A stretch of DNA of 64,000 nt from Candidatus Aceula meridiana (GTDB taxonomy: Bacteria > Omnitrophota > Gorgyraeia > Zapsychrales > Aceulaceae). Made by a program: the position numbers and the translations under genes. Below the pieces are notes generated by a model that did not search any database, was not told the origin of the DNA, and saw nothing but the letters and a program-made list of their open reading frames with translations. How positions within the stretch are numbered: position 1 is the stretch's first letter; each line of letters opens with the position of its first letter. The stretch lies in contig JAVCDE010000024.1 of the NCBI GenBank assembly GCA_030765185.1, forward strand, positions 123,538 through 187,537, given 5' to 3'. Below, piece by piece: positions 6,181-58,446 of this stretch.

Positions 6181-6216
6181 CTTTAAAAACTACCTTACTA
6201 TAATTTAACCTTTGAT

Positions 6217-38710: not shown

Positions 38711-38719
38711 GATAACCTC

Positions 38720-39544: not shown

Positions 39545-39547
39545 GCT

Positions 39548-40285: not shown

Positions 40286-40297
40286 AAATTTAAGTCT

Positions 40298-41335
40298 TTA
40301 TAGTTGGTTAAGAATCTCTTGTGGGCTTACGGCAACGGCCCCTGTTTTGGCAACAACCACGCCAGCAGCGCAATTAGCTAAAAAAGCAGCCTCTCGCTTA
40401 GTCGCACCACTTGCCAAACTTAATGTAAAAACAGAAATAACTGTATCCCCGGCACCGCTGACATCAAAAACTTCTTTAGCTTTTGTTTCAATATGAAAAG
40501 GCTCGTTGCCTTTTTCAAATAAATACATGCCTTCATCCCCTAAGGTCACGAGCAATGATTCAAGCTTCAGATGACTTAAAATAGCCTTTCCGGCTTTCTG
40601 TACGTCTTTTAACGTTTGTAGTTTATCTTTCTTAATATTTAGGCTGCGGCCTTTTGTCTGCGTAATTATAATATCGCGGATAGCATTTTGAGCTTCATTC
40701 TTGTTAGGAGTAATTGCGGTAACTTTTGAATAATAATGAAAATGTTCGACCTTAGGATCGACGGTAATAATTTTTTTATTTTGAATCGCTAGCTTACAGA
40801 CGCGAGTAACAAGATCTTTGGTAACAACGCCTTTTCCATAATCAGAAATAATAATCGCATCAAAGCTATCAATCTTTTTCTCAATAAAATTAAAAATCTT
40901 TCGATTAACTCCATCAGGCCCTAAATCGCGGGTGTCTTCCCGGTCTACACGAACAAGCTGCTGATGCTGGGCAATGATGCGGGTTTTAAGGGCGGTGGGA
41001 ATACGTTTGTCGATAAAAAGACCACGAACATCAATTTTACGCCTTCTAAGCTCTTTTTTGAGAATTTTCTCTTCGCGGTCTTGGCCAACCCGTCCCACTA
41101 AAACAACCTTCGCGCCTAAACGGCTTAAGTTATTGGCAACATTGGCTGATCCGCCAGGCGTGTAATGTGGATGCCCATCTTGAAGAACAACGGGAACAGG
41201 AGCTTCTGGGGAAATCCTTGAAACAGAGCCTTGAATATACTGATCAAGAATTACATCTCCGACAACAAGGATCTTCTTATTCTTAAAGGAGGCAATAATC
41301 TTGTTGAAATGACTCATGTTACGAAATTTTACCAT
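40298..41335 (-). CDS. D-glycero-beta-D-manno-heptose 7-phosphate kinase (HldE domain I / RfaE1, pfkB family); no adenylyltransferase domain attached
   Basis: pfkB N-terminal GG motif and C-terminal DVSGAGDTV signature, 345 aa. Adjacent to kdsB and the heptosyltransferases. Confidence 0.85.
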   Translation of the reverse strand: MVKFRNMSHFNKIIASFKNKKILVVGDVILDQYIQGSVSRISPEAPVPVVLQDGHPHYTPGGSANVANNLSRLGAKVVLVGRVGQDREEKILKKELRRRKIDVRGLFIDKRIPTALKTRIIAQHQQLVRVDREDTRDLGPDGVNRKIFNFIEKKIDSFDAIIISDYGKGVVTKDLVTRVCKLAIQNKKIITVDPKVEHFHYYSKVTAITPNKNEAQNAIRDIIITQTKGRSLNIKKDKLQTLKDVQKAGKAILSHLKLESLLVTLGDEGMYLFEKGNEPFHIETKAKEVFDVSGAGDTVISVFTLSLASGATKREAAFLANCAAGVVVAKTGAVAVSPQEILNQL

Positions 41336-42700: not shown

Positions 42701-43477
42701 CTAAAGTCCTACGCCGTCTGCCACAATTTCAACTTTTGGAGACGTAAGGCTCTCTTCGATTCCTCGATACTTAAGCCACCGATAATCCGGCTCGGCAAGA
42801 TGCCAAATATAAACCTTTGGGAAAACTATCTTTAGAAAACTAAAAATCCCAATGTGAGGATCAAGCAAGATTTTATAGGCCCTACGCGTTTTCCCTTCGA
42901 TTAGAACATCTTCCTCTTGAACAAGACGTGCGGTAAATTTATAAAGATGCGGTTCACCAGTTAAAAGAAAAAAGGTCTTTTTCCTTTTACCCTCTTGCAA
43001 AAATCTGCGCACATATAGCCCTAAAAGCAATCGGCTAACAATATCCCCTTTAAATTTAAAATTATAGATGTTCTCTTCTTTTGTCCCTTTTTGAAAATCC
43101 TGTCGGCGAAAGATGGTTTTATGTTTTTCAAAATCAAACGTCTGAAAAATTTCAACGATAAGGTTCCCATCCTTATCAAAAATTCTTTTTTCTCCTCTAA
43201 TGGGGCGCATCGACTTCACGCCATTTTCTACGGTCAGCCTCTCCTCCCAAGAAATTTCACCGAAAAAACCAGAATTTTTACCGCTACCTTTTTCGGTTAG
43301 AACATAGACATCTTTCCTATCTTCAGGGTTAGCCTCAATAGCAAAAGAAGCCTGCCAGCGCTTATTTCCCTTAAGGTCATAACCAGAATAACTAGAATGA
43401 AAAACCTCCTCTGAAAAAAGACTACTTTGCAACATCAGAAAAAAAACAAGAAATAAAAAATACGTTCTTATTTTCAT
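42701..43477 (-). CDS. Secreted hypothetical protein (possibly DUF3108-like)
   Basis: Cleavable signal peptide. No motif recognised with confidence. Sits between PilZ and the first heptosyltransferase. Confidence 0.5.
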   Translation of the reverse strand: MKIRTYFLFLVFFLMLQSSLFSEEVFHSSYSGYDLKGNKRWQASFAIEANPEDRKDVYVLTEKGSGKNSGFFGEISWEERLTVENGVKSMRPIRGEKRIFDKDGNLIVEIFQTFDFEKHKTIFRRQDFQKGTKEENIYNFKFKGDIVSRLLLGLYVRRFLQEGKRKKTFFLLTGEPHLYKFTARLVQEEDVLIEGKTRRAYKILLDPHIGIFSFLKIVFPKVYIWHLAEPDYRWLKYRGIEESLTSPKVEIVADGVGL

Positions 43478-44517
43478 GATTTAAGAATTTCGTCAGTAGC
43501 CGCTAGTACATTTGAAACACTGATAGACCGGAGACACTTAAAATTAATTTTGCACTCATGGGCCAAGCAAACCTTACAGCCAATATTGTTATGAAGAACG
43601 ATATCTTTTTTTCCTAACGGACGCCACCGCGTTTGCGACAGTCCTGGCTGATTGCGACCAAGAATGGAAACAACCGAGGTATGAACGCCGACAGCCAAAT
43701 GCACCGGCCCGGAATCATTGGAGATTAGTAAAGAGCTTCGCTTTAAAATGCTTACCGATTGGCTGATGCTTGTCTGGCCGGTTAAATCAATGACAGAAAC
43801 ATTTGTCGACGCCAAAACCTCTCGGGCAATGAGCTGATTGTCCCCCGCTCCAATTAAAATGATTTTAGCAGGATATTTTTTATCAAGCTCCTCGATAACC
43901 TCTGCAAACCTCTCTGGAGGCCAACGCTTTGAAATACAACTTGCCCCCGGATGAATGGCGAAAACCTTATCATTAGGCCCAATCTTTTTTTGCAAAAATA
44001 ATTTATCAGCCCACTCCTCAGACTCAGGATCAATGCCGACACAAAGATTAAGATCGTGAAACTCAACTCCAATATATTTTAAAAGCTCCAAACAATACTG
44101 CGCTTCATGTTTTGTCCCATCGGTGCGTGGATCCGGATATTGTGTTAGAAAAAAATTAAGTTTTTTATTCTTAAAGCCAATCCGAGGCTTAATGCCAGCA
44201 TGGAACAACATCGCATTCGTTCGATTTTTTAAATGATAGTTGATTGCCAAATCAAATTTATGTCGTCTTAAAACAAAAACAAAATGCCAAAATCCAAAAA
44301 AACCTTTATCTTTTCCATGCTGATCATACACAAGAACTTCATCTAAAAAAGGATTACCGACAACTATATCCTTGGTCTCTGGGTTTACCAATATCGTAAT
44401 CCGCGCTTTTGGATAAGCCTTGCGCAAAGCCTCAATGGCTGGAGTGGTCAAAACCACATCTCCAATGCGATCAGTCCTAACAACAAGAATATTTTTAAAC
44501 TCTCTTTTTTTAATCAT
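43474..44517 (-). CDS. Glycosyltransferase family 9 (LPS heptosyltransferase, RfaF/WaaF-like)
   Basis: N-terminal ILVVRTDRIGDVVLTTPAIEAL and C-terminal SNDSGPVHLAVGVHTSVVSILG GT9 signatures. Confidence 0.85.
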   Translation of the reverse strand: MIKKREFKNILVVRTDRIGDVVLTTPAIEALRKAYPKARITILVNPETKDIVVGNPFLDEVLVYDQHGKDKGFFGFWHFVFVLRRHKFDLAINYHLKNRTNAMLFHAGIKPRIGFKNKKLNFFLTQYPDPRTDGTKHEAQYCLELLKYIGVEFHDLNLCVGIDPESEEWADKLFLQKKIGPNDKVFAIHPGASCISKRWPPERFAEVIEELDKKYPAKIILIGAGDNQLIAREVLASTNVSVIDLTGQTSISQSVSILKRSSLLISNDSGPVHLAVGVHTSVVSILGRNQPGLSQTRWRPLGKKDIVLHNNIGCKVCLAHECKINFKCLRSISVSNVLAATDEILKS

Positions 44518-45485
44518 AAAATATTATCCACAATCATGTCAAAAACGTCCTTAGGGTCAATTTCATCGATTAAAGAGCATCCCTTTTCATCAACATTACT
44601 GCTTTTTAAAAAATACCCCTTTTTGCCCCAAGGTCCATATTCTTGAGGACTACTCGGTCCAAACAAAACAAGAGCTGGAATATTAAAATAACTTGCTAAA
44701 TGCGCTACGGCGCTATCATTGGCAAGCACAAATTCACTTTCTTGAAGAACATAGGACAATGTTAAAAGATCAATTTTTCCGCACAAATTTATGCAAGACT
44801 CTTTTGCCTCTCGAATAATATCAACAGTCGCATCATTGTCATTTTCATCACCAACAAAAACAGCCGTAAGATGCTTTTCATTCTTAAGCATGTGACAGAT
44901 GCTGGCAAACCCTTTCTTGTTCCAACGTTTCGCAGGATTAGCCGATCCTGTAGAAACGACATAATACTTCTGATTTTTCCCAAGATAATGGCCGATGCGG
45001 CCCTCAATGTTCTTTTCCTGACGATCATTTAAAAAAATCGCATAACGATTATTCGACATCATCGAATCCGGTACAACCTCTTGAAGACGTTTGAAATGCT
45101 TATCTTTCATATGCATTTTAAAATCGGCACGTGGCTTACTTAAAGAAGTCCTCCTTTTTGGATTAATAATCAAGGGGATAGCCGTATGGCGCAAATCGAC
45201 AACCATATCAAAACGATATTGTCGCAAAGCCCATGCCCATTTTAGCATTGAAAATTTTGGCTGCTGCTTATCAAAGACTAAAACATCTTGCAAGTAAGGG
45301 TTGTTATCAAAAAGGCCTTTTGCCTTTTGGCCAACCACTAAAAAAATTTCTGAAGTCGGAAAACGGTCAATAAGACTATCAATGACAGGGCATGTCAAAA
45401 CCACATCACCGATATTGCTTAAGGAGATAACAAGAATTTTTTCAACATCCATTCTCTTTAATCCTTTCAATGACATCATCCACAC
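44514..45485 (-). CDS. Glycosyltransferase family 9 (LPS heptosyltransferase)
   Basis: ILVISLSNIGDVVLTCPVIDSL and ANDSAVAHLASYFNIPALVLFGPSSP motifs. Confidence 0.85.
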   Translation of the reverse strand: MWMMSLKGLKRMDVEKILVISLSNIGDVVLTCPVIDSLIDRFPTSEIFLVVGQKAKGLFDNNPYLQDVLVFDKQQPKFSMLKWAWALRQYRFDMVVDLRHTAIPLIINPKRRTSLSKPRADFKMHMKDKHFKRLQEVVPDSMMSNNRYAIFLNDRQEKNIEGRIGHYLGKNQKYYVVSTGSANPAKRWNKKGFASICHMLKNEKHLTAVFVGDENDNDATVDIIREAKESCINLCGKIDLLTLSYVLQESEFVLANDSAVAHLASYFNIPALVLFGPSSPQEYGPWGKKGYFLKSSNVDEKGCSLIDEIDPKDVFDMIVDNIL

Positions 45486-46455
45486 TTATCGCTTTCATGC
45501 AAATATTATCTTTGCAATCAAGGTGATAGCAAGGCTTGTCATTACATCCTACCTCTTGCCGTATAATAATTCCCTCTTTGATTCCTCGCGGGCCTGTTAC
45601 CTTCGGATGCGTTGGACCAAAAAGCGCAATCGTTTCAGTCCCGACGCTGCTAGCAGCGTGAAGCGGCCCAGAGTCAGCAGAAATAACAATCGATGCTCTT
45701 TTTAAAACTGCAAAAAGCTGAGAAAGAGTTGTTTTTCCCGCGAAAACAATTGGTGTGGCTTGCGTAAGGGCAACAATCTGATTTGCGCTATCAACATCTT
45801 TAGGCGCTCCTGAGATAGCAACCTTAGCCTTCAACTCTTTCTGAAGTCGGTCTGCCAGGTGAGCGAAGTTTTCTTCTGGCCAACGCTTTAAATCCCAATT
45901 ACCGCCAATATTTAAAATTGCCAAGAAATCATTTTCTTTAATTCCATTTTCTGCAATAAATTTTTCCGCAAAAACTTCTGACTCCTTATCGCAAGAAAGC
46001 TCATATTTTCTCTGTTTGACTTCAACGCCGAAAGACTCAATGACCTGAAGATAGTGGTCGCTACGATGGACTGCGCTACTCACACGTTTCACGATATGAG
46101 TTAGAAGGCTTCCTCTTTTTTTCGTTGCATATCCTACGCGGACAGGAATGCCCGCTAAAAAAATTAAAAGCGCCCTTGTCATCGAACCATGCAATAAAAA
46201 GGCAACATCAAACTTTTCACGCCTAAGCGCTCCGATAATTTTCAGTTTTCCTAAAGTCGACTGATGACATCCTTTTTCTTCATAGATAATAACGTTGTCG
46301 ATAAATGGAATCTGCTTTAAGACCTCCGCAACGCGTGGAACCGCCATGCAAGAAATCTGACTTTGAGGATATTTCACATGTAGTGCGCGGAAAATAGGCG
46401 CTGAAAAAATAACATCCCCGAGCCAATTAACATTAACAACAAGAATTTTTTTCAT
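45442..46455 (-). CDS. Glycosyltransferase family 9 (LPS heptosyltransferase)
   Basis: ILVVNVNWLGDVIFSAPIFRAL and SADSGPLHAASSVGTETIALFGPTHP motifs. Confidence 0.85.
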   Translation of the reverse strand: MKKILVVNVNWLGDVIFSAPIFRALHVKYPQSQISCMAVPRVAEVLKQIPFIDNVIIYEEKGCHQSTLGKLKIIGALRREKFDVAFLLHGSMTRALLIFLAGIPVRVGYATKKRGSLLTHIVKRVSSAVHRSDHYLQVIESFGVEVKQRKYELSCDKESEVFAEKFIAENGIKENDFLAILNIGGNWDLKRWPEENFAHLADRLQKELKAKVAISGAPKDVDSANQIVALTQATPIVFAGKTTLSQLFAVLKRASIVISADSGPLHAASSVGTETIALFGPTHPKVTGPRGIKEGIIIRQEVGCNDKPCYHLDCKDNICMKAISVDDVIERIKENGC

Positions 46456-47543
46456 TTCAAAACACCTTGATAAATTTCAAGCGTTTTATCAATCATTTTC
46501 TCCGGCGAAAAATTCTTTTTAATAAATGCCTTCCCGGCAGCTCCAAGCTCTTTAGCTTTTTCCATATTGTTAATAAGCATAACAAGCGCTGCGGCAAGAG
46601 CATCAGGGTTTTCCGTAGGCACAAGAAGCCCTGTCTCTCCATCTTGAATAAGGCTCATAAGCCCACCGATTTTTGAAGCGACAACCGGCAATCCCACCGC
46701 CTGCGCCTCCATAACCGATAAGCCTAACCCCTCTTGGCGCGAGGGCATAACAAAAATATCTAAAAATGGTAAAATATTGTCAAGGTCATTGATAATTGGC
46801 AGAAAAGAAACATTTTTTTCAAGTCCAAGTTCATCAACAAGTTTCAAAAGAGCATCGCCCTCTTTTCCTTCGCCGACAATTAACAAATTTGCTTCTGGAT
46901 TTGATTCGATAACTTTTTTCATTGCCTTAATCGCAACATCTATTCCTTTCACATCAGAAAGCCGTGCAACAATACCAAGAATCACCCCTTTTTTCAAATT
47001 AAGCTCTTTTCGCTTTTCCTCTTTTTGCTGAATGCCAACAGCGCATTCCTTTATTTCAACGCCATGTGGAATTAAAAAGATCTTCTCTTTTGAAACGCAA
47101 AGGTCATTTTTTAAATGCTCAACAACCTGAGGACTAATGGCAATCGTCGCGTCTCCCCAGCATGGAAAAATTTTTCGTGAAATACGTGCCTTAAAAAACC
47201 CATGACAAGTTGCCACATGAGGAATTTTTATAAAATGCTTAAGCATTGTCCCGACAACCTGCGTAACACGTGTCTGCGAATGAACAACATCGATAGCGTT
47301 CTCTCGAATAAAACTCTGAAGTTTATTAACTGCGCGATAAACCTTTGGGCTAAGTTCAGATTTTGTATTGATATCCAAATCAACATGTCTGCCGCCTGAA
47401 CTTTTAAGCTCTTCTATCATATTGCCACCACTTGAGGCAACATAAATACAATGACCTTTTTTCACAAAACCACGCGTTAAGCTTAAGATATAGCTTGTAA
47501 TCCCACCGGCATTAAAATGTGTTGTAAAAATAAGGATGTTCAT
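46452..47543 (-). CDS. Glycosyltransferase family 4 (GT-B, group 1)
   Basis: 363 aa. C-terminal E-x7-E region (PSRQEGLGLSVMEAQAVGLPVVASKIGG). Confidence 0.85.
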   Translation of the reverse strand: MNILIFTTHFNAGGITSYILSLTRGFVKKGHCIYVASSGGNMIEELKSSGGRHVDLDINTKSELSPKVYRAVNKLQSFIRENAIDVVHSQTRVTQVVGTMLKHFIKIPHVATCHGFFKARISRKIFPCWGDATIAISPQVVEHLKNDLCVSKEKIFLIPHGVEIKECAVGIQQKEEKRKELNLKKGVILGIVARLSDVKGIDVAIKAMKKVIESNPEANLLIVGEGKEGDALLKLVDELGLEKNVSFLPIINDLDNILPFLDIFVMPSRQEGLGLSVMEAQAVGLPVVASKIGGLMSLIQDGETGLLVPTENPDALAAALVMLINNMEKAKELGAAGKAFIKKNFSPEKMIDKTLEIYQGVLK

Positions 47544-49643
47544 TTAGCTATTATCCATCAGCTGCCTCACTGCTTGGGCAACCTCTTGAGGGGTTATCTG
47601 TGTCATGCAGTCATGCGTATGCAAGGGGCATCGTGATTGATAACAATGCATGCAATCTAATTTGCGATAAAGAATTCTTGATTTCTTTGATGGTGGCAAA
47701 TGGCGCAAAGGATCTGTCGGCCCAAAGAAGGCAACAAAAGGCGTTTCCATAGCTGCCGCGATATGCATCGATGCCGAATCCGGTGTTACATATACATGAC
47801 ATTTTCTAATAAGAGCTGCCAGTTGCAAAACATTTGTTTTTCCGATAAGGTCTGCCGGCTTGGCTTTTGTTTTCTTTAAAAGCTCGCGAGCGAGAATTTT
47901 ATCTTTTTCAACACCTGTTAAGACGACACGAATGTTTTGTGCAGCCAAAATATCACAGAGCTCAGCCACATAATCTAGCGGCCACCTTTTGCTTTCCCAT
48001 CGTGATGAGGCGGCTAAATTGATACCCACCAGTTGCGTATTTTTAGCGATCCACTGACTTTCAAAAAGTTGCTGAATATATTTTTCGTCTTCTTTGGATG
48101 GCCAAAGCTCAAGATGTTCTTGCCCATTTGTTGTAATACCTAAAAGATTTAAAACTCGAAATTGGTGCGCAACCGCAGGTATTGGCGCGTGGTCATCAGA
48201 AACACTGTTAGACAGTAAGGCCCCCCATTTTGTATTTTTATATCCATAGCGTTCATGGCACAGACTTAAAAAAGCCAGAAGATGACTTTTCCTATTGTTC
48301 TGGAAATCAATAACTTTATCAAACCGATAGCGCCGCAACTTCTTAATGATCTTTCCAAACCCCCAAAAGCCTTTGTGTTTATGTACTGGATCATAGACAA
48401 TAACTTCATCTAAATAAGGGCACCTCTGCAAAATTTCACGAAAATCCTTTTTAACCAAACAAGAAATCTTGGCCAACGGAAAACGCTCGCGTAACGCCTT
48501 TAAAGACGGCATAATAAGAATAACATCACCTAAGGCACTTAATTTTATAACTAAAATTTTTATATGCTTTAAGACCTCTCCATAAACTTCCAGCGTCTGG
48601 CTCGCCATATGGTCCAAGGTATAATGGGATAAAATCTTTTCTTTGGCATTTTCAACCAAGCGGCGTGCTAGCACCTTGTCTTCTAAAACACGTACAACCG
48701 CCTCGGCCATCTTTTCGGGATGTTTAGGCTCAACTAAAATCCCAGTTTGCTCATCTTCAATAATTTCAACGACGCCACCTACTCTTGCCGCAACAACCGG
48801 CACTCCGGCTGCCTGGGCTTCAACGATAACTCTACCAAAAGACTCAGGGACAACAGATGAGAAAACTAAAACATCCGTCTCAGCTAAGAGTTCAGGAATA
48901 TCTTTGCGGCTTCCTAAGAATTCAACTTTATCGGCTAGCCCTAAACGACGAACAAGAACTTTAAGGCCTTCACGATACGATATTTTTTCTTCCGGCGCAT
49001 CGCCTATAATCCAAATCTTAACATATGGTAAAGTACGCACGACACGTGCCATTGCCCTTAAAAAATACTCATGCCCTTTCAAAGGAGTAATGCGTCCAAT
49101 AATCGAGATGGTATATTCAGACTTTGAAAAACTTTCAGAACGTGGGATATTAAATTTACGCAAGTCCACGCTACGCGGAATGCAGCGAATGTTTTCTGCG
49201 GCGACATGAAAATCTTCTATCATGTGTCTGCCAATAACTTTGCTCGGAACAATAATAAGTTTGCCCCAAGCCATAACACGTGAAAAAAAATGTTTCGAAT
49301 AATACCCGTGACACGTTGTGACAAAAGGTGTCTTGATTTTTTGGCAAGCGAAAAATGCAATCCACCCCGGAACACGAGACCGAGCGTGGACAATATCAAC
49401 TTTCTCTTGTTGTAGGATTTTGATAAGACGGTGTGTGCACCAAATAGCCGTCAAAATATTCTTGCGGTGAGCAGGAAGCTCAATATGCCTCGCCCCGGCC
49501 TCCTCCAAATCAACAACAAGTTCCCCTCCATTTGAGATAACAAGCGCCTGATGGCCATGCTCAACTAAGTAACGGGCTAAATCAACCGTTCCGGTCTCTA
49601 CTCCACCTACGCGTAACTCCGGAAGAATTTGCAGTACTCTCAT
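47544..49643 (-). CDS. Fused GT4 glycosyltransferase (N-terminal ~360 aa) + GT9 heptosyltransferase (C-terminal ~340 aa)
   Basis: N-terminal half carries GT4 motifs (PESFGRVIVEAQAAGVPVVAARVGG). From about nt 48566 downward a GT9 domain follows (KILVIKLSALGDVILIMPSLKAL … TPDSASMHIAAAMETPFVAFFGPTDP). Confidence 0.8.
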   Translation of the reverse strand: MRVLQILPELRVGGVETGTVDLARYLVEHGHQALVISNGGELVVDLEEAGARHIELPAHRKNILTAIWCTHRLIKILQQEKVDIVHARSRVPGWIAFFACQKIKTPFVTTCHGYYSKHFFSRVMAWGKLIIVPSKVIGRHMIEDFHVAAENIRCIPRSVDLRKFNIPRSESFSKSEYTISIIGRITPLKGHEYFLRAMARVVRTLPYVKIWIIGDAPEEKISYREGLKVLVRRLGLADKVEFLGSRKDIPELLAETDVLVFSSVVPESFGRVIVEAQAAGVPVVAARVGGVVEIIEDEQTGILVEPKHPEKMAEAVVRVLEDKVLARRLVENAKEKILSHYTLDHMASQTLEVYGEVLKHIKILVIKLSALGDVILIMPSLKALRERFPLAKISCLVKKDFREILQRCPYLDEVIVYDPVHKHKGFWGFGKIIKKLRRYRFDKVIDFQNNRKSHLLAFLSLCHERYGYKNTKWGALLSNSVSDDHAPIPAVAHQFRVLNLLGITTNGQEHLELWPSKEDEKYIQQLFESQWIAKNTQLVGINLAASSRWESKRWPLDYVAELCDILAAQNIRVVLTGVEKDKILARELLKKTKAKPADLIGKTNVLQLAALIRKCHVYVTPDSASMHIAAAMETPFVAFFGPTDPLRHLPPSKKSRILYRKLDCMHCYQSRCPLHTHDCMTQITPQEVAQAVRQLMDNS

Positions 49644-51622
49644 ATAATGCCTTGAGTTGCCTTCAAAAGAATTTCTTGATCTTCAATAGGTTTTAAAACG
49701 ACATTGTCTTTTGCTAATTGATTAATAGCAGTGCCGATATCTGTTTCCGTGCTTACAAAAACATGCTCTTGGAATTTAAGATTTTCGACAAAAATCTCAT
49801 GTTTGGTTTTTATTTTTTTATTTTTTTGTTGCGCTAAAAAGACAATAACCTTTTTTCCAGAGCTTACAGCCTCAGAGACCATCGAGATGCTGTCTGATGA
49901 AGCAATAATGATGTCACAAAGACCTAAGATGCCCCCTACGGCTTCAGGAACATTATTATGTTTAGCGTTAATAAAAAGCTCGCATGGCGGATAACTTTTA
50001 AGTTCTCTTTCTAGAATCTCGTCAACATCCTTCGGCGTCCGGCGCGATGTGGTTAAAAGAATTCTCATGTCTAAAGCTTGTGCAGTATTTTTAAGCTGAC
50101 GCACCAACTCCACAGCCTGAGAGTAGGTAATGGTATGATTTTTTGACTCCCCGCCCAGTAAAATGCCAATCGACAATTTCTTTTTTGCTTTAAGATTCGT
50201 AAATTTTGCTAAAAGCGTCTGCGTTTGATTTTTTAAATATTGCGGATTAATTAAATTTGGCGCAAGTTTAGTAAAAACAACATTCTTTCGCTTGCCTGAA
50301 GAATAGCCCCTATCATGTTCCGGCAAAATAGCCAGATCAAAACGATTCATCCCCAAAGCACCTGGCCGCTGAATAACAATACTCTTTGCTCGGTAATCCT
50401 GCGACAAGAAATAATTCACTCCAGAGGTCGAAGATCCGCAGGAGATAACAAAATCACCTTTGACACTCATAACCTCTAAGAAAGATTTACGCTTTAAAAA
50501 CCATTTTAAGTAACGCAGTCTTCCTTGAGAAACTTTTTCATGTGTTAAAAAACTTAATGTCGAAAAAATACGCCGACGTTTTTCATCCTTAAATTCAACG
50601 TCAATAACCTGTAGTTCAGACTGAATACCTCGCTCCGTCAATGCCTCGGCAATTCCCTGAGCAACTGCCTGCGACTGGCGCAGATGTCCGGTGCGCTTAT
50701 CATTTAGGATAACAACGGTTGATTCCTTAGAATATTTCCAAATTTTATAAAGCCACATATATTGCGAAGGATATCGCGTGATACACTCCTCCATTGTTTT
50801 CGTAATATTCTCAAGATTTGTCCGGACGTCTTGATTGATGTCCTGTGTCTTAACAAGATCTAATGCCGGCTGAATAATAAGCCGGTGATAAGGCCCTTTC
50901 TCGTTAACAATGGTGCAAAAATAAATAGGGACATCAAATTTTAATCCAATTTTAATCGCGCCTACAGACATCGAGGAAAGGCGTCCAAAAAATTTGACCA
51001 ACTCTCCTGTCTTGCCCCCTTGGTCAACGACAATACCAACGATCTCATTTTTTTTCAGTGTCTTCAAAAAATCCCTAGCGCCCGAACCCGATGTAGAAAT
51101 CAAGCCCGCTCCCGCACTTTGCCGATAAGAATTTAAAAGGTCGTTAAGCCGCGAATGCCTTGCCTGTGGATTCACCATAACCCGATAGGGATGGCCTAGC
51201 AAAGACTCCATAAAATTACAAAGCTCCCAGCTACCAAAATGCATAGCAAGCAATATAACACCCTTGCCTTTTTTGATGGCTTCGTCAACATATTCTTTCC
51301 CTTCAACTTTGATATATTTATGTGGGTCTGTTATCGGCAGGCGTAAAAGTTCAATAAAATGCTGTCCAAAGTTTCGGTACAGTTCACGTAGAATACGTTT
51401 GATCTCGCTCGTCTTCTTTGTTTTTGCAAAAGCAATCTTAAGGTTTGAATACGCAATCTTCTTATGCTTAGCGTCAAGATAATACCCTAAAAGTCCGACG
51501 AAGCGTCCGAAGCCAATTGCCGTGGAAAGCGGTAACGCGCGGACAATTGTTGCAAAAAACTTAACAGCCCAATAAGCAGAAAATTCGTTTTTCAATCTCT
51601 TCCTTTCCTTTAGTAATATCAA
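49640..51622 (-). CDS. Fusion of lipid A late acyltransferase (LpxL/HtrB family) with an ELM1/DUF1022 (COG3660)-like GT-B domain
   Basis: N-terminal ~300 aa: FSAYWAVKFF…, HFGSWE (H-x4-E acyltransferase motif). C-terminal ~360 aa begins VVILNDKRTGHLRQSQAVAQGIAEAL, reminiscent of the ELM1-family N-terminus. The start may be an internal Met, since it overlaps the lpxK 3-prime end by 62 nt. Confidence 0.7.
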   Translation of the reverse strand: MILLKERKRLKNEFSAYWAVKFFATIVRALPLSTAIGFGRFVGLLGYYLDAKHKKIAYSNLKIAFAKTKKTSEIKRILRELYRNFGQHFIELLRLPITDPHKYIKVEGKEYVDEAIKKGKGVILLAMHFGSWELCNFMESLLGHPYRVMVNPQARHSRLNDLLNSYRQSAGAGLISTSGSGARDFLKTLKKNEIVGIVVDQGGKTGELVKFFGRLSSMSVGAIKIGLKFDVPIYFCTIVNEKGPYHRLIIQPALDLVKTQDINQDVRTNLENITKTMEECITRYPSQYMWLYKIWKYSKESTVVILNDKRTGHLRQSQAVAQGIAEALTERGIQSELQVIDVEFKDEKRRRIFSTLSFLTHEKVSQGRLRYLKWFLKRKSFLEVMSVKGDFVISCGSSTSGVNYFLSQDYRAKSIVIQRPGALGMNRFDLAILPEHDRGYSSGKRKNVVFTKLAPNLINPQYLKNQTQTLLAKFTNLKAKKKLSIGILLGGESKNHTITYSQAVELVRQLKNTAQALDMRILLTTSRRTPKDVDEILERELKSYPPCELFINAKHNNVPEAVGGILGLCDIIIASSDSISMVSEAVSSGKKVIVFLAQQKNKKIKTKHEIFVENLKFQEHVFVSTETDIGTAINQLAKDNVVLKPIEDQEILLKATQGII

Positions 51623-52625
51623 TCTTAATTTTCAACATAAGAACCATCAAATCCCTATCAAAACCATGAAAATATTGATTAAGCTTTACGGCATCCTTTT
51701 GAGTCGTCACAATCGTTGTGATATGCCTTTCCTGACAATAGCGGTTAATCTTTTGAACATCTCCACTGTCATAGACATGATGATCCCTAAAAATAAAATT
51801 CTTAACTACCTGCGCGCCAAGCCCGGTCAAAGTCTTCTCAAAAGATTCCGGAGACGCAATCGCTGAAAAACAGCAGACATTTCTTTTTTCTAAAAAAGAT
51901 AAAGGCTTGCTCTCTTGAGAATTCCTAGCATCTAAAAGTGCAACTGGCTGATGAACTGCTTCAGCAATGGAAATCGTCGGGCAGAGACTCAATACTTTTT
52001 CACGAATTTCTTCAATATTTACCTTTCCTAAATCTGATTTTGTCAACATAACAAAATCAGCTCGCTTCAGAGCGCTTAACGGTTCCCTTAAAAATCCCCG
52101 AGGAATTAACTGCCCATTTAAATGAGAAGCCGTGCTATCTATGGTAATAATGTCTAAATCCCGTTTTAATTTAAAATGTTGAAATCCGTCATCTAAAATA
52201 AAAACATCGATCTTCTCTTCTTGAAAAGCCTTAGATGCTTGAGCGAACCGATCTTTGCCGATAAGGACCAAAACATCTTCAAGGTTTGCCTCTAAAAGAC
52301 GTGCCTCATCATAAACACCTTCTTCAAGGCTATATCCTCGCGTTAAAATTGCAGGCCTTAGTCCCTCTTGCCGGCAAAGTTCAGCCAAATATTGGACTAA
52401 AGGTGTTTTTCCGCTACCGCCTAAAGTAATGTTGCCTACGCTGATGACTTTGCAAGGCAATGTCTTTTGCGGTAAAACCCCCGCCTGATAAGCCCACACC
52501 AGCAACCTTATACCTAGCCCGTAGATAAAAGAAAATAGCCATAAAATAACTTTTACCACTTTAGCTGCAATGCTATTATTTTTATCTTTCGCTAATGACA
52601 ACCAATAGGAATCTATATTTCTCAT
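51561..52625 (-). CDS. lpxK: Tetraacyldisaccharide 4-prime-kinase
   Basis: ISVGNITLGGSGKTP P-loop, 354 aa, between waaA and lpxL. Confidence 0.92.
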   Translation of the reverse strand: MRNIDSYWLSLAKDKNNSIAAKVVKVILWLFSFIYGLGIRLLVWAYQAGVLPQKTLPCKVISVGNITLGGSGKTPLVQYLAELCRQEGLRPAILTRGYSLEEGVYDEARLLEANLEDVLVLIGKDRFAQASKAFQEEKIDVFILDDGFQHFKLKRDLDIITIDSTASHLNGQLIPRGFLREPLSALKRADFVMLTKSDLGKVNIEEIREKVLSLCPTISIAEAVHQPVALLDARNSQESKPLSFLEKRNVCCFSAIASPESFEKTLTGLGAQVVKNFIFRDHHVYDSGDVQKINRYCQERHITTIVTTQKDAVKLNQYFHGFDRDLMVLMLKIKIDITKGKEEIEKRIFCLLGC

Positions 52626-53878
52626 ACTAAGATATTGGAAATAATGTTAATGGTTTTATCTACTGCACCTTGCTGGTTTTCAATAACTTCACGGGCTTTT
52701 AATCCTAGTTCCTCGCATCGGGCTTCGTCCTTTAAAAGCTCCTGAACAACCTTTACAAATTCTTTTTCATCTTTAACCTGAATGATAGCATTGTTGTCTA
52801 AAAAGAGTTGCGTTACATCAAGAAAATTATCCATATACGGGCCAACAATGATGGGTTTTTCAAAATACGCCGGCTCAATAATATTATGCCCACCTCTTCT
52901 TGTTAAACTCTTTCCAACAAAAACAATTTTTGCCAAACTGTATAATGCCCTCAAGTGTCCTATCGTATCAACGACGACAACCGTATCTTGATTAAAGACT
53001 AAATCATGGGTCTGCGAAAACTTAACAGCTTCAAGTTTTTTAGCCTCAACTAAAGCGCAAACCTCATCAGTTCTCTCAGGATGGCGTGGGGCAATGATGA
53101 GCCTAAGTGACGGAAACTTTTTTTTAATTTTTTTAAAAAGATTTAAAACAATTTCTTCCTCACCTGAATGCGTGCTTCCGGCCACTAAGATTTCTTCATT
53201 GTCATCAACGCGTAGACCTTTAAGCTGTGAATCGTTAATCTCAGGAATATCATCAAATTTAATATTGCCAACAACGTGTACTTTATTGCTCGATGCTCCT
53301 AGCGTCCTAATCCGATTTGCATCGCGATCGGTCTGCATGCAAAATTGCCATACATATCCCAAAACTGGCTTGATAAAAACTTTCAAACGTTGATATCCCT
53401 CAAATGCTTTATCAGAAATACGTCCGTTAACCTGAACGATCGGAATACCCCTCTTGTGAAGCGCAGTTAAAAGATTCGGCCAAATCTCAGTTTCTGTATT
53501 AATAAAAATTTGTGGTTGTAAAATGCGGATATACTTTCTAACAACAAAGCTGAAATCTAAAGGTGCGAAAATAACAACATCTTCATCTTTGGCAATCGAC
53601 TTCGCTAGATTGTATCCTGTCTTTGTAACCGTGGAGATAATAATTTGGTAGCCCAAAAAACATTGATGTATCTTTTTAATAAGGTTCTTCACAACTAAGA
53701 CCTCACCGACACTAACCGCATGAATCCAAATCTTTTTCTTATTGTTAAGCCCCAATGCCTTTGCATCTAGAGCCCCGAAACGCATCAAAAAACCTTTGTG
53801 GAGCTTGCCTTTCACAACAAGTATCAGAAAATAAAAAATAGAAAATAAAAGAAATACTAAATCGTAAAGAATAAACAT
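52622..53878 (-). CDS. waaA: 3-deoxy-D-manno-octulosonic acid (Kdo) transferase
   Basis: GT30. N-terminal membrane anchor + KdtA N-domain (…RFG…IWIHAVSVGE…), 418 aa. Confidence 0.92.
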   Translation of the reverse strand: MFILYDLVFLLFSIFYFLILVVKGKLHKGFLMRFGALDAKALGLNNKKKIWIHAVSVGEVLVVKNLIKKIHQCFLGYQIIISTVTKTGYNLAKSIAKDEDVVIFAPLDFSFVVRKYIRILQPQIFINTETEIWPNLLTALHKRGIPIVQVNGRISDKAFEGYQRLKVFIKPVLGYVWQFCMQTDRDANRIRTLGASSNKVHVVGNIKFDDIPEINDSQLKGLRVDDNEEILVAGSTHSGEEEIVLNLFKKIKKKFPSLRLIIAPRHPERTDEVCALVEAKKLEAVKFSQTHDLVFNQDTVVVVDTIGHLRALYSLAKIVFVGKSLTRRGGHNIIEPAYFEKPIIVGPYMDNFLDVTQLFLDNNAIIQVKDEKEFVKVVQELLKDEARCEELGLKAREVIENQQGAVDKTINIISNILV

Positions 53879-54738
53879 TATGCCCTCGGGTGTGCCTTAT
53901 TGTAGATGTTTTTTAATTTTTCCGTTGTCATGTGCGTATAAATCTGGGTCGTTGATAAATTCACGTGGCCTAAAAGTTCCTGAACGCTGCGCAAATCTGC
54001 CCCAGCATTTAAAAGATGTGTCGCAAACGAATGGCGCATCGCATGGGGTGAAATCTTACTCTGAATACTTGTATTTAAAATGTGCTTGTTTACGATATTG
54101 CGGATGCTTCTATCGGTTAAGCGACCGCCACGCTGATTTAAAAAAACCGCCTCGCTTTTATGCTTTCTTGTATTTAAATAGTCTCGGATAACATTAAGGG
54201 CTGTGTCTCCGATAGGAATAAGTCTTTCTTTCCTTCCCTTTCCCATAACCTTCACAATATTGCCAATAAAATCAATACGGTCGGTATTCAGGCTTACAAG
54301 TTCGCTTACGCGCATCCCCGTCGAATAAAGAGCTTCCAAAATCGCACGGTCCCGTTTAGATGCTTCATCTTTCCCTTTAGGGCTATCCATCAGCCTGCCT
54401 GCATCTGACTCGGATAAAAACTGCGGAAGCTTTTTATCAAGCTTTGGCGTCATTAAAAGAATCGCTGGGTTTTTTTTAATCAACCCTTCACGAAACAAAA
54501 ATTTAAAAAAACTACGAAGCGCAGAAAGCTTACGCGCGATGGTTCTTGGCCTTAAATCTTTTCCGCGCAAATTTCCTAAAAACCGGCGTAAATGAAAATA
54601 ATCTACACGCTCAAGAGGTCTTTCTTTTAAATACGCAAGAAACTCTATTAGATCAATCTTATAATTCAAGATCGTATGCGGCGAATAATTCTTTTCGACC
54701 TCAAGATAAGTTAAAAACTTTTCGAGATAACGATTCAT
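53878..54738 (-). CDS. Tyrosine site-specific recombinase, XerC/XerD family
   Basis: C-terminal catalytic R…HxxR…Y region (HAMRHSFATHLL…LLGHVNLSTTQIYTH), 286 aa. Confidence 0.88.
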   Translation of the reverse strand: MNRYLEKFLTYLEVEKNYSPHTILNYKIDLIEFLAYLKERPLERVDYFHLRRFLGNLRGKDLRPRTIARKLSALRSFFKFLFREGLIKKNPAILLMTPKLDKKLPQFLSESDAGRLMDSPKGKDEASKRDRAILEALYSTGMRVSELVSLNTDRIDFIGNIVKVMGKGRKERLIPIGDTALNVIRDYLNTRKHKSEAVFLNQRGGRLTDRSIRNIVNKHILNTSIQSKISPHAMRHSFATHLLNAGADLRSVQELLGHVNLSTTQIYTHMTTEKLKNIYNKAHPRA

Positions 54739-54744
54739 AAAATT

Positions 54745-56697
54745 TTATTTTGGCAAACGTCTTGAAGTAAATGTACACTTCGGATAACAGCTACATCCAT
54801 AAAATGTTGCCCCGCGCCTTGACCGACGCTCAACCAGCTCTCCGGTGCATCCATCCTCTGGGCAATCAATACCTGTTGGAAACGCCTCAGAATGTTTACA
54901 CTCAGGAAATTGCGAACAGCTTAAGAATTTTCCATTGCGTCCCCACTTAACAGCCAGGGGCTTTCCGCATAAAGGACAATTTTTATCAAAAAGCGTTATG
55001 ACCTTTTCAATTTTCTCAGTTGCATAATCAAGCTCTTCTTTAAACGGTTCATAAAATTCGTTTAAAAGCTTTGAATAATCCAACTCTCCCTCTTCAATCA
55101 AATCGAGATGCTCTTCCATCATCGCTGTAAAACCAAAATCCATAATCCTTGGAAAATACTCGACAAGCAAATCACAAATCGTTGTCCCGAGCTCTGTGGA
55201 GCTAAAATATCCTTTTTCCCGATACACATAATTACGCATGGCAAGCGTATTGATAATCGGCGCATAAGTACTCGGGCGGCCAATACCATTTTCTTCTAAA
55301 CCACGCACAAGCGTTGCTTCTGAAAAATGTGGTGGCGGCTTAGTAAAGTGTTGAGTAGGTTTGACTTCGATGAGATTCAAAGGATCATCTTTTACAAACT
55401 GAGATAAATCCATTTCAGAATCTTTACCCCTCTCATCTTGGTTTAAAGTTAAGTGACCGTCAAATTTTATACTCGAGGCTGACGCACTAAATTCAAAACG
55501 GCCGGCAGCAACAGAAATCCTCTTCTGCTTAAAAACAGCCGGGGTCATCTGACAACTTACAAACTTTCGCCAGATAAGCTCATAAATTTTATACTGCTCA
55601 TCCGTTAAAAAAGATTTAATGTCTTCTGGCCTTCGAAAAACATCACTGGGGCGAATAGCTTCGTGAGCTTCTTGTGCGCTCTTCTTGGATTTATAAACGT
55701 TTGGTGTCTCTGGCAAATATTCCTTACCATAACCTTCTTCAATAAATTTTCTTACACGGTTTTTAGCTTCGTTGGCGATGTTAACAGAATCTGTACGCAT
55801 ATATGTAATCAAACCAATGGTTTCGCCATCGCCCAAATCAATCCCTTCATAAAGTTGCTGAGCCATCATCATTGTACGCCCAGTGTTAAACCCAAGCTTG
55901 TTAAATGCAGCTTGCTGCAGCGTACTCGTGATTAAAGGCGGCGAAGGATTACGGCGGATTTCTTTTTCGGAAACATCAGAAATCACAAATTGCTCACCCT
56001 TAATTTCTTCAACAATACCATCAGTTTGCGATTGACTTTTAAGGTCTGGCTTGTCTTCTGCGATTTTATCTAAAGAAGCATTTAAAATATCTTCGCTATT
56101 TTCTTTTTTAAGATCAACTGAAACTTGCCAATATTCTTGAGGAATAAAAGCTGCAATGGCTTTATCCCTCTCAACAATCAATCGGAGGGCTACAGATTGT
56201 ACCCGGCCGGCGCTAAGGCCTGCCCCAACTTTTTTCCACAAAAGCGGGCTTAGCTGGTAACCCACTAAGCGGTCTAAAACACGACGGGCAATCTGGGCAT
56301 CAATCTTCTTAGAATCAAACTCGCGAAGATTCTCAAAGGCCTTTAAAACAGCTTCTTTGGTAATTTCATGGAAGCTAACGCGATAAACATTCTTGTCTTT
56401 GCCAATTTCGTTCGCCAGGTTCCACCCGATAGCCTCTCCCTCGCGGTCAGGGTCAGTGGCGATATAAATGTTCGTTTTTGTCTTAGCCTCCTTTTTAAGC
56501 TTAGTGAGAAGCTTTTGCTTGCTGCGGATGACAATAAGCTTCGGCTTAAAATTATTTTCTAAGTCGATACCCAAAGTTGATTTAGGAAGGTCTATCAAAT
56601 GCCCCATAGAAGAGACAACCTTATACGCCTTGCCTAAAATTTTGTTAATCGTTTTCACCTTTGCCGGTGACTCTACAATAACAAGAGATTTTGCCAT
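54745..56697 (-). CDS. topA: DNA topoisomerase I
   Basis: TOPRIM start (SLVIVESPAKVKTI), catalytic Tyr region, C-terminal C4 zinc ribbons, 650 aa. Confidence 0.95.
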   Translation of the reverse strand: MAKSLVIVESPAKVKTINKILGKAYKVVSSMGHLIDLPKSTLGIDLENNFKPKLIVIRSKQKLLTKLKKEAKTKTNIYIATDPDREGEAIGWNLANEIGKDKNVYRVSFHEITKEAVLKAFENLREFDSKKIDAQIARRVLDRLVGYQLSPLLWKKVGAGLSAGRVQSVALRLIVERDKAIAAFIPQEYWQVSVDLKKENSEDILNASLDKIAEDKPDLKSQSQTDGIVEEIKGEQFVISDVSEKEIRRNPSPPLITSTLQQAAFNKLGFNTGRTMMMAQQLYEGIDLGDGETIGLITYMRTDSVNIANEAKNRVRKFIEEGYGKEYLPETPNVYKSKKSAQEAHEAIRPSDVFRRPEDIKSFLTDEQYKIYELIWRKFVSCQMTPAVFKQKRISVAAGRFEFSASASSIKFDGHLTLNQDERGKDSEMDLSQFVKDDPLNLIEVKPTQHFTKPPPHFSEATLVRGLEENGIGRPSTYAPIINTLAMRNYVYREKGYFSSTELGTTICDLLVEYFPRIMDFGFTAMMEEHLDLIEEGELDYSKLLNEFYEPFKEELDYATEKIEKVITLFDKNCPLCGKPLAVKWGRNGKFLSCSQFPECKHSEAFPTGIDCPEDGCTGELVERRSRRGATFYGCSCYPKCTFTSRRLPK

Positions 56698-56805
56698 AAA
56701 GCCCTCATTTCGGTAATAGATAATATATAGACATTATTATAAATATTTATATAAATTAATAGTATTGGTTAAAGAGATCCTTCGTCACTTTCGTTCCTCA
56801 GGATA

Positions 56806-56837
56806 ATATCAGAGACCTTAAGCCTAGTCTCTGATAT
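56806..56837 (-). promoter_or_regulatory. Perfect 11-bp-stem hairpin (ATATCAGAGAC / GTCTCTGATAT, 10-nt loop) 13 nt downstream of dprA, upstream of the topA promoter region
   Basis: Seen directly in the sequence. No U-tract follows on the minus strand, so it is not a classical intrinsic terminator. Confidence 0.35.
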
Positions 56838-56849
56838 CATAAACGATTT

Positions 56850-57998
56850 TTAAGTTTGTGCAAATAGTTTTCCTGGGAGTTGTTTAATACGCTTTTTAAG
56901 GCTTAGGGAAAGCAGTGCAGCAGAAAGCTTTGCGGTAGTTATTTGGCATTCCAGTGCCAGTTGATCAATGTGAATCCCTTTGCTAGAAATTCTCTTGAGA
57001 ACTTCCCTCTCCTGATCGCTTAGGCCAGAGAAATCCTTTAGGTTTTCCTCATCTTGGCTTGATACAGAACGTTTAAGCTCAAGCCCTAACTCCTCGATTA
57101 CATCATAAACATTGCTAATAAGCTTCGCACCCTGCTTGATAAGATCATTCACCCCTAAAGATGACGGGCTATCGACTTGGCCTGGCACGGCAAAGACATC
57201 TTTTCCCTGTTCAAGAGCAAAATCTGCGGTGATGAGGGCTCCGCTTCTTTTAGCAGCTTCGACAACGATTACTCCTAGAGATAGGCCGCTAACGATACGG
57301 TTGCGACGCGGAAAGTTGCACGCCAAAGGTGCAGTTTGCATAGGAAATTCTGATATCACAGCTCCAGCATCAGCGATCGCATCAAATATTTTTTTATTTT
57401 CGGCAGGATAAATGCGTGCCAGGCCACTTCCTAAAACTGCAATCGTGCGCCCCCTTGCCCTCAACGCTCCTCGGTGGGCTGCGGTATCAATTCCACGCGC
57501 CATACCGGAAACCACTGTAATTCCATAATCACAAAATCCAGCGCTAAACTTTTCAGCGACAGAAACTCCGTAAATAGACGCCCGCCGTGAACCAACAATT
57601 GCAATAGCCATATCATCTTGTTTTTTAATTTTTCCCTTAACGTATAAAACAGGTGGCGGATCAGCAATCTCTTTAAGGAGTTCAGAATAACTTTTGTCGT
57701 TAAGACAGATAACCTCGACGTTGTGACGCTTGATAAGCTCATATTCTTTTTCTAAGAAAGCATCTGCCTCAAACTCTTCTATATTACCTGCAATTTTTGG
57801 CGGCACAATACCACTTGCCACGAGGTCTTTAGCAGAAACAGACAAAACTTTTTGAGGTGTTTTGAAATAAGAAATAAGCTTTGCAATGCGGACTGGCCCT
57901 AAGCCTGAAATTGCATTTAGAACAAGAAAGGCATCAAGATTTGTTATTGGGCACAGCTTTGAGGGCTTCATCAACAACCTGCGCAATCGTTTTTTCAC
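56850..57998 (-). CDS. dprA: DNA processing protein DprA (Smf)
   Basis: Rossmann-like DprA core (AIVGSRRAS…VVSGMARGIDTAAH…) and C-terminal winged-helix domain, 382 aa. Confidence 0.92.
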   Translation of the reverse strand: MKKRLRRLLMKPSKLCPITNLDAFLVLNAISGLGPVRIAKLISYFKTPQKVLSVSAKDLVASGIVPPKIAGNIEEFEADAFLEKEYELIKRHNVEVICLNDKSYSELLKEIADPPPVLYVKGKIKKQDDMAIAIVGSRRASIYGVSVAEKFSAGFCDYGITVVSGMARGIDTAAHRGALRARGRTIAVLGSGLARIYPAENKKIFDAIADAGAVISEFPMQTAPLACNFPRRNRIVSGLSLGVIVVEAAKRSGALITADFALEQGKDVFAVPGQVDSPSSLGVNDLIKQGAKLISNVYDVIEELGLELKRSVSSQDEENLKDFSGLSDQEREVLKRISSKGIHIDQLALECQITTAKLSAALLSLSLKKRIKQLPGKLFAQT

Positions 57999-58446
57999 TC
58001 GTGTCTATAGTAATGTCGGCTTTCGCGTAAAACGGCTCACGGAAGCTCAAAAGTTCATTAATTTTTCCCTTAGGGTCTTCGACATTTAAAAGCGGACGGT
58101 GCTTATGATTCTTTGTGCGGTCATGAATTTTATCGGTCGAGGTTTTAAGATAGATAATAACGCCGCTTTTCTTTAAATTTGCAACGTTTTCATCCTGTAA
58201 AACAATACCACCGCCGCAATCAATCACTAGGTTTTCTTTTTCGCTTATTTCACCAACAATCTGTTTTTCAAGATCACGAAAGTATTTCTCTCCCTCTTTT
58301 TCAAAAATATCTGTAATCGGCTTTCCCTCTTTCGCTACAATCAAAGCGTCTGTAGACACAAGCTTGTGTCCTAAACGGCCAGCCACTTCTTTGGCTACAA
58401 CAGTTTTTCCGGCACCCATAAATCCAACTAAAGCAATATTTGTTTT
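57934..58446 (-). CDS. aroK: Shikimate kinase
   Basis: NIALVGFMGAGKT P-loop. ~170 aa from the internal MKTNIAL start (the ORF is open to 58485). Confidence 0.88.
   Translation of the reverse strand, partial: KTNIALVGFMGAGKTVVAKEVAGRLGHKLVSTDALIVAKEGKPITDIFEKEGEKYFRDLEKQIVGEISEKENLVIDCGGGIVLQDENVANLKKSGVIIYLKTSTDKIHDRTKNHKHRPLLNVEDPKGKINELLSFREPFYAKADITIDTSEKTIAQVVDEALKAVPNNKS

Follow-up and report, generated by a model that had tools for sequence, protein, structure and literature searches.

A conserved fusion of an LpxL-type acyltransferase domain and an ELM1/KdoT-family glycosyltransferase domain at the lipid A–Kdo locus of Omnitrophota

Introduction

Why would an acyltransferase of late lipid A biosynthesis be joined, within one polypeptide, to a domain of the ELM1 family? 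This question is raised by a gene at 49640–51595 on the minus strand of a 64,000-nucleotide stretch (the window, to which coordinates refer unless another locus is named) of contig JAVCDE010000024.1 from Candidatus Aceula meridiana, a member of the Omnitrophota. The gene, lpxL::ELM1 (kdoT-like), is supported by the listing of open reading frames (ORFs), the NCBI protein and the sequence, and encodes 651 residues plus a stop codon. Here, we show using profile searches, structure prediction and comparison of loci across species that the fusion is genuine and old. By analogy with a relative from Acinetobacter baumannii, we consider it probable that the protein is a bifunctional, membrane-tethered enzyme of the late lipid A/inner-core stage, in which an LpxL-type acyltransferase is combined with a KdoT-like transferase of 3-deoxy-D-manno-oct-2-ulosonic acid (Kdo).

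GtrOC1 is a PF06258 protein of the A. baumannii outer-core loci (PMC4172580). Deletion of its gene, A1S_2903, leaves a Kdo2 chemotype (mBio, 2024; PMC10936431), and in December 2025 the protein was named KdoT and its activity was reconstituted (Journal of Biological Chemistry; PMC12856342). KdoT is a transferase that uses cytidine monophosphate-Kdo (CMP-Kdo) to add KdoIII to Kdo2-lipid IVA; it favours a tetra-acylated over a hexa-acylated acceptor, is inactive on lipid IVA and, as mutagenesis of R179 and R180 revealed, needs R180 of an invariant SRRT motif (PMC12856342). It has no transmembrane segment and is associated with the membrane only peripherally, a Rickettsia rickettsii homologue of the ELM1 family partly complements the A. 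baumannii kdoT deletion, and the authors describe the family as not yet placed in any characterised glycosyltransferase (GT) family (PMC12856342). An initial annotation of our locus, which took the bacterial function of the ELM1 family to be unknown, has therefore been superseded on this point, and its presentation of the fusion as a fresh functional hint has been overtaken by the KdoT work and by NCBI, where the protein is already listed as “ELM1/GtrOC1 family putative glycosyltransferase”. Its proposal that the domain probably acts on lipid A or Kdo, on the other hand, agrees with the biochemistry of KdoT (PMC12856342).

Results

The longest ORF listed at the locus runs from 49640 to 51622, where it reaches a TTG, and encodes 660 residues; the string DKRTGHLRQSQAVAQGIAEAL is found within it. 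A second TTG, at 51595, lies just 3′ of a Shine–Dalgarno-like AAGGAAAGGAAG and yields the 651-residue protein called by NCBI (P0001, 100% identity), and for these two reasons we place the start at this codon, which is probably the true one rather than TTG 51622. Residue numbers below refer to the 651-residue protein and Pfam match positions to the 660-residue ORF; all features described in the window lie on the minus strand unless stated otherwise. Pfam finds the two families that the initial annotation had predicted, Lip_A_acyltrans (PF03279) at residues 15–296 (E = 1.3e-45, 156.3 bits versus a cut-off of 22.3) and Mito_fiss_Elm1 (PF06258) at residues 321–613 (E = 4e-48, 164.5 bits versus a cut-off of 27), and no other family in the fused protein at E ≤ 0.01. 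The C-terminal half, for which a different, well-characterised identity such as LpxB had been considered, matches PF06258 only, with no LpxB/GT19 (PF02684) match at the same threshold. Nor does Pfam report a WaaA/GT30 (PF04413) match in the fused protein; PF04413 sits in a separate gene at 52622–53878.

The two domains meet at the segment YKIWKYSKES (50720–50749), as delimited by conservation and by the last helical (280–283) and first strand (291–298) elements of an AlphaFold2 (AF2) model. In this model these two elements, one closing the LpxL domain and the other opening ELM1, lie about seven residues apart, and the junction consensus YKIWKYSKE is among the best-conserved stretches of the fused protein: W286, K287 and Y288 are invariant, and S289 and E291 nearly so, in 71 homologues. 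The full-length protein is predicted as a single, confident model, with a predicted local distance difference test score (pLDDT) of 93 and a predicted template modelling score (pTM) of 0.86.

Is this junction a property of the gene or of one assembly? More than 120 full-length homologues were found in NCBI, JGI, ENA and Logan assemblies, and all 120 that were listed (46–100% identity, 628–670 residues) contain both Pfam domains; all named fused forms are from Omnitrophota. In addition, a scan in which each GTDB species was represented by one genome returned at least 561 genomes with a relative, of which the best 80 loci were analysed. The ELM1 match shares one ORF with an LpxL domain in 65 of these 80 species loci, and four further loci end at a contig edge yet retain the LpxL C-terminus. 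In locus L035 a stop separates the lpxL and ELM1 parts into adjacent ORFs (1–1380), and in L040 a frameshift leaves them as overlapping separate ORFs (5148–7038); these splits may be true fissions or assembly errors. Two loci in 80 with separate ORFs are the evidence for an assembly or frameshift artefact that joined two genes, a possibility raised by the initial annotation. This explanation is refuted by the recurrence of the same in-frame junction in more than 120 homologues and in the 65 species loci, across independent assemblies from all four sources, and by the one confident model that spans it. Because the Pfam E-values are as low as given above and the fused ORF is conserved across many species, chance is excluded as well.

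The ELM1/KdoT-family domain comprises residues 291–651 (49643–50725), as supported by PF06258, AF2, fold matches to glycosyltransferases of the GT-B fold and alignment with hhalign. Predicted in isolation, it forms two Rossmann-like lobes with a pLDDT of 93.9 and a pTM of 0.91. The top 50 PDB matches listed contain only generic GT-B enzymes (MGD1, TreT, UDP-GlcNAc 2-epimerases and WaaF), with template modelling (TM) scores of 0.34–0.58, mostly around 0.5, at 9–14% identity, and no solved structure close to the domain is among them. Sequence relatives are closer. The ELM1 protein of Rickettsiales Ac37b is 30% identical over 238 residues (BLASTP, E = 2e-28), and the alphaproteobacterial ELM1 profile aligns over its columns 2–322 with columns 4–358 of the domain (hhalign probability 100%, E = 5e-55). 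On these alignments the C-terminal domain is homologous end to end with Rickettsiales and alphaproteobacterial ELM1 proteins; these were used for the homology comparison, while A. baumannii KdoT itself was compared by its published description.

Several motifs mark the domain. DKRTGH follows strand 1 in the N-lobe (50684–50701), its D and G are invariant across clades, and by its spacing it would correspond to D8 and H13 of KdoT (residue numbers from PMC12856342). The P-x-H-D motif, here PEHD (50312–50323), aligns with the PEHD of Rickettsiales ELM1 and reads HD in 76, HE in three and an unlisted variant in one of the 80 species. The SRRT motif (S517–T520; 50036–50047) is assigned to the donor side by conservation and by the KdoT mutagenesis (PMC12856342); S-R-R occurs in all 80 species, and the full SRRT is invariant in the 71 homologues. 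In the C-lobe lies DSISMVSEA (49868–49894), with invariant S, M and E. Taken as patterns, D-x3-G-H, P-x-H-D, G-G, S-R-R-T and S-x-S-M-x-S-E are invariant or nearly so, and the module looks catalytically competent. The lobe on the acceptor side carries a basic and hydrophobic helical insertion that is specific to Omnitrophota (residues 338–377; 50465–50584), recognised as a gap against the alphaproteobacterial profile. It adds about 25 residues compared with alphaproteobacterial ELM1, has a net charge of +6 and contains a conserved QGRLxxLKWFL; speculatively, it could form an acceptor- or membrane-binding element.

Could the ELM1 domain instead be non-catalytic, a scaffold or regulator that recruits or paces lipopolysaccharide (LPS) enzymes at the membrane, such as the GT4::GT9 protein encoded next to it? 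The plant member of the family, from whose part in mitochondrial fission the name of PF06258 derives, is reported to work as an adaptor of dynamin-related proteins and not as an enzyme (PMC10936431), although it is eukaryotic and has no LPS context. In A. baumannii, single substitutions at four candidate base residues leave function in place, and KdoT and GnaT are co-dependent in vivo (PMC12856342). Purified KdoT, however, is active by itself (PMC12856342), and SRR, GG, PxHD and SxSMxSE stay invariant in 80 species at 34–51% identity, a pattern more in keeping with an active site than with a docking surface. We therefore regard a non-catalytic role as improbable.

The LpxL/LpxM-type acyltransferase domain occupies residues 1–290 (50726–51595), as judged from PF03279 and from its likeness to LpxM of A. 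baumannii (PDB 5KN7) in sequence and fold. It matches LpxM by sequence (5.7e-15), with HFGSWE opposite the HFGTWE of LpxM, and LpxM is also matched by Foldseek (E = 3.2e-14, 24% identity, TM(target) 0.69), followed by PatA (TM(target) ~0.8); PDB entry 5KNK is the E127A variant of LpxM. The HFGSWE noted by the initial annotation is thus the catalytic H-x4-E motif (H119 and E124; 51224–51241). In column-based counts, the H, G, W and E of H-x-G-x-W-E are invariant in the 71 homologues and in 66 species, and with this dyad intact the module looks catalytically competent. All 17 matches of the module to NCBIfam equivalogs stay under their cut-offs, the best being NF006270 (135.9 bits versus 248).

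The N-terminus had also been described as a membrane anchor, and this description is only moderately supported. Two helices are indeed predicted by AF2 at residues 2–40 (51476–51592) and form the presumed anchor. They are moderately hydrophobic, however, as their maximum Kyte–Doolittle mean over 19 residues is 1.38, which is under the usual threshold for a transmembrane segment. Hydrophobic moments (muH) are 0.18–0.40 for these helices and for the ELM1 insertion.

The gene lies where the initial annotation had placed it, between lpxK (51561–52625; PF02606, 5.5e-79; TIGR00682, 173 bits versus a cut-off of 92) and a gene for a GT4::GT9 (WaaF-like) fusion (47544–49643; Pfam, and TIGR02195 above cut-off). 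Two genes upstream is waaA, which encodes the Kdo transferase of family GT30 (52622–53878; PF04413, 1.5e-58; NF004388, 1.5e-106). Given the start at TTG 51595, the 3′ end of lpxK overlaps the fused gene by 35 nucleotides. The stop codon of the fused gene in turn overlaps the start codon of GT4::GT9 (ATGA), and this overlap suggests that GT4::GT9 is translationally coupled to it. The order of the operon, waaA-lpxK-lpxL::ELM1-GT4::GT9, tracks the order of the pathway. Downstream follow one GT4 and three GT9 core glycosyltransferase genes (43474–47543; Pfam, NCBIfam), and beyond these the cluster contains a heptose-7-phosphate kinase gene (rfaE domain I), kdsB, kdsA, kdsD and kdsC (37219–41335; all above NCBIfam cut-offs, and Pfam), then lptC/A and lptB. 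As kdsA, kdsB, kdsC and kdsD belong to the same cluster, the supply of CMP-Kdo is co-located with the fused gene.

Other features of the window were noted in passing. Directly upstream of lptB, a 295-residue ORF (36362–37249) combines LptC (TIGR04409, above cut-off) with an LptA/LptD_N-like part (TIGR03002, below cut-off), apparently a further fusion in the LPS pathway. A 258-residue ORF within the core cluster (42701–43477), between the last GT9 gene and a PNPOx-like gene, has no match in Pfam or NCBIfam. Outside the cluster, a 1787-residue ORF (58554–63917) of the pyruvate-phosphate-dikinase (PPDK)/phosphoenolpyruvate (PEP)-utilising type contains PPDK_N, mobile and PEP-binding domains; its PPDK_N match extends across about 500 residues, and the ORF is roughly twice the length of a typical PPDK. 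The window as a whole (1–64000) is an unusually long co-directional stretch, in which, among 54 ORFs of 150 residues or more, 53 are on the minus strand and the remaining one, on the plus strand, is contained within the GT4::GT9 gene. In the profiled region (44000–58000), nearly all 500-nucleotide windows have a negative GC skew.

How is the domain arranged elsewhere? The best 80 loci are from Omnitrophota metagenome-assembled genomes (MAGs), some with the ENA-pipeline label Planctomycetales. MAGs deposited in ENA as third-party annotation under “uncultured Planctomycetales/Planctomycetia” (L007, L009, L012, L021, L025, L030 and others with CAY or CAZ identifiers) carry the typical Omnitrophota locus with the fused gene, and these labels are probably coarse or wrong. 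The order waaA-lpxK-lpxL::ELM1-GT4::GT9-GT4-GT9x3 is conserved, and waaA-lpxK-X-GT4::GT9 holds among the 80 loci wherever the contig is long enough. GT4::GT9 comes next after the ELM1 domain in every architecture whose locus extends downstream, including a stand-alone ELM1 protein (P0215, locus L083). Among the 150 nearest ELM1 cluster representatives, 106 are fused to LpxL, three to LpxK and 41 are ELM1-only, many of the latter being fragments; a second fused class of about 600–620 residues is also present.

In six of the 80 loci, the same position is taken by a second, independent fusion, LpxK::ELM1 (PF02606 plus PF06258, about 710–740 residues; L033:4931–7150, L050:4936–7086, L058:1840–3984, L059:2156–4309, L061:2849–4975 and L067:4939–7074), one of them, L067, on a complete chromosome of 1.55 Mb. 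Like the LpxL fusion, it contains an orthologous ELM1 domain with SRRT and is followed by GT4::GT9; it differs in its N-terminal partner, the lipid A 4′-kinase, and no lpxL was found in the six loci themselves. In a neighbour-joining tree, the LpxK-fused ELM1 domains group together as a single clade that is nested within the LpxL-fused domains. From this nesting and the lack of lpxL in these loci, we propose that LpxK::ELM1 probably arose when the LpxL module was lost from lpxK-lpxL::ELM1. WaaA uses the lipid IVA that LpxK makes, and LpxL acts on the WaaA product. Since LpxK thus precedes and LpxL follows WaaA, the ELM1 domain has been fused, in different lineages, to both enzymes that flank WaaA in the pathway.

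A gap of 1.3–1.6 kb between waaA and lpxK in some loci was considered as a hiding place for a divergent lpxL, and this was ruled out, as the genes in the gap are of the CBS, Na+/H+ exchanger, PilZ-STAS and UPF0047 types. What is inserted between waaA and lpxK varies (L022:2812–4090, L067:3295–4937), with PilZ-STAS and UPF0047 genes in some lineages and CBS-domain and Na+/H+ exchanger genes in the LpxK::ELM1 lineage. The second GT9 gene of the cluster is joined to the third in one ORF in several Omnitrophota (L028:11388–13058, L040:11580–13004, L043:11322–13031, L056:11429–13063, L064:11259–13031 and L070:11322–13028), and the LPS genes of this phylum seem unusually fusion-prone.

A fusion to LpxK would be explained if the ELM1 domain had taken over one of the canonical steps of lipid A synthesis, for instance that of LpxB, as a disaccharide synthase outside GT19, because the LpxB product is the direct substrate of LpxK. 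The 64-kb window contains no lpxB. Yet the window is a fragment of a 538-kb contig, which makes this absence uninformative, and lpxA, lpxC, lpxD and a second lpxL are absent from it too; genome-wide content is not implied by any of these. The commonest partner, LpxL, moreover acts after WaaA, and KdoT is inactive on lipid IVA that lacks Kdo (PMC12856342). Replacement of LpxB is therefore very improbable.

Discussion

What would a protein of this composition do? We favour a bifunctional enzyme in which both modules use the same membrane-bound substrate, the product of WaaA. WaaA would make Kdo-lipid IVA, and the ELM1 domain, by analogy with A. baumannii KdoT, would then add a further Kdo from CMP-Kdo, with the arginines of SRRT holding the donor, while the LpxL domain would add a secondary acyl chain. 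The N-terminal module would hold the protein to the inner membrane on its cytoplasmic side, so that the fusion tethers an otherwise peripheral transferase beside its substrate, and the product could then be handed to the translationally coupled GT4::GT9. Tethering is a plausible selective reason for the fusion, because KdoT has no transmembrane segment and is only peripheral at the membrane. Our data show the architecture, its conservation, the motifs, folds and homology of the two domains and their gene context, whereas we infer which sugar is donated, where it is attached, which reaction comes first and why the domain is tethered; Kdo is the likely donor, though not an established one.

The comparison with KdoT is close in several respects. 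Both proteins share PF06258, the GT-B fold, the invariant SRRT, and D…GH and PxHD in the same order; both are encoded among LPS core genes, and in both a GT4 enzyme acts or is encoded next. The GT4::GT9 that follows the ELM1 domain recalls the succession of KdoT and GnaT (LpsB, GT4) in Acinetobacter, and it may be a GnaT-like next step. In contrast to KdoT, a stand-alone protein of about 35 kDa, the Omnitrophota domain shares its polypeptide with LpxL or, in a sister clade, with LpxK; it has the helical insertion, belongs to a heptose-containing core cluster and to a phylum of the Planctomycetes–Verrucomicrobia–Chlamydiae (PVC) group, and is known here from its sequence. The acyltransferase half shares PF03279, the H-x4-E dyad and the fold with LpxL, LpxM and LpxP (E. 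coli LpxL; A. baumannii LpxM, 5KN7), its N-terminal helices may be an anchor region like theirs, and as in the known systems its gene lies downstream of waaA and lpxK. It differs from them by the 360-residue C-terminal glycosyltransferase and by scores below all NCBIfam equivalog cut-offs. WaaA (KdtA, GT30) is likewise of the GT-B type, and the donor CMP-Kdo and a lipid A-linked acceptor would be shared with it; it is of another family, however, and has its own gene.

Several observations weigh against the bifunctional reading. SRRT is family-wide and hence does not discriminate between donor sugars. As all equivalog cut-offs are missed, LpxL, LpxM or another acceptor specificity are indistinguishable for the acyltransferase module, and the catalytic role of both modules is argued from homology and motifs. 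No LPS genes stand beside the stand-alone ELM1 genes of two alphaproteobacterial genomes, Terasakiella and Rickettsiales Ac37b, so that the genomic linkage of ELM1 to LPS is not universal. The C-terminal domain, in addition, is only about 26–30% identical to the alphaproteobacterial clade and carries the lineage-specific insertion of about 25 residues in its acceptor-side lobe, and GtrOC14, GtrOC19 and GtrOC22 are uncharacterised PF06258 paralogues in the variable outer-core loci of A. baumannii (PMC4172580).

The last two points also speak for a related possibility, namely that the domain adds to the Kdo/lipid A region a sugar different from Kdo, or attaches Kdo at another position, and has in common with KdoT only an inner-core GT-B role on a lipid A-linked acceptor. 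The locus further combines a heptose pathway with four GT9 domains, unlike Acinetobacter, and the inner core must therefore differ. Nonetheless, the two distant clades that have been tested, Acinetobacter and Rickettsia, both support addition of KdoIII (PMC12856342), the donor-side motifs including SRRT are invariant, and fusion to LpxK or LpxL assigns the domain to the stage of Kdo-lipid IVA and not to the outer core. A divergent specificity of this kind is possible, but we hold it to be the less probable outcome.

More tentatively, and with a good deal of doubt, the bifunctional enzyme may be part of a covalently wired assembly line for the lipid A–Kdo stage, in which the ELM1 domain is always tethered to a WaaA-adjacent enzyme and GT4::GT9 always comes next. 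The added Kdo, or another acidic sugar, would then gate secondary acylation and core extension, and the insertion would be a new acceptor- or membrane-binding element. If this is true, the fusion would reveal that Kdo addition and acylation follow an obligatory order, and it might also point to a new specificity in the KdoT glycosyltransferase family.

We found no description of the LpxL-ELM1 fusion, the LpxK fusion or the constant GT4::GT9 partner in the searchable literature, and all three appear to be undescribed so far. For annotation, the NCBI name obscures the acyltransferase half of the protein and the JGI name the transferase half. For structural work, the fused gene offers a compact, confidently modelled two-domain protein from a family without a solved structure.

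In conclusion, the characterisation of the KdoT family dates only from December 2025 and covers just Acinetobacter and Rickettsia. As a “Rosetta stone” from comparative genomics, the fusions in Omnitrophota are independent evidence for action of this family on the lipid IVA/Kdo2-lipid IVA intermediate, and they would extend the split Kdo pathway to a phylum of the PVC group. LpxK as an alternative partner and GT4::GT9 as a constant neighbour suggest, furthermore, which enzymes adjoin one another at the membrane.

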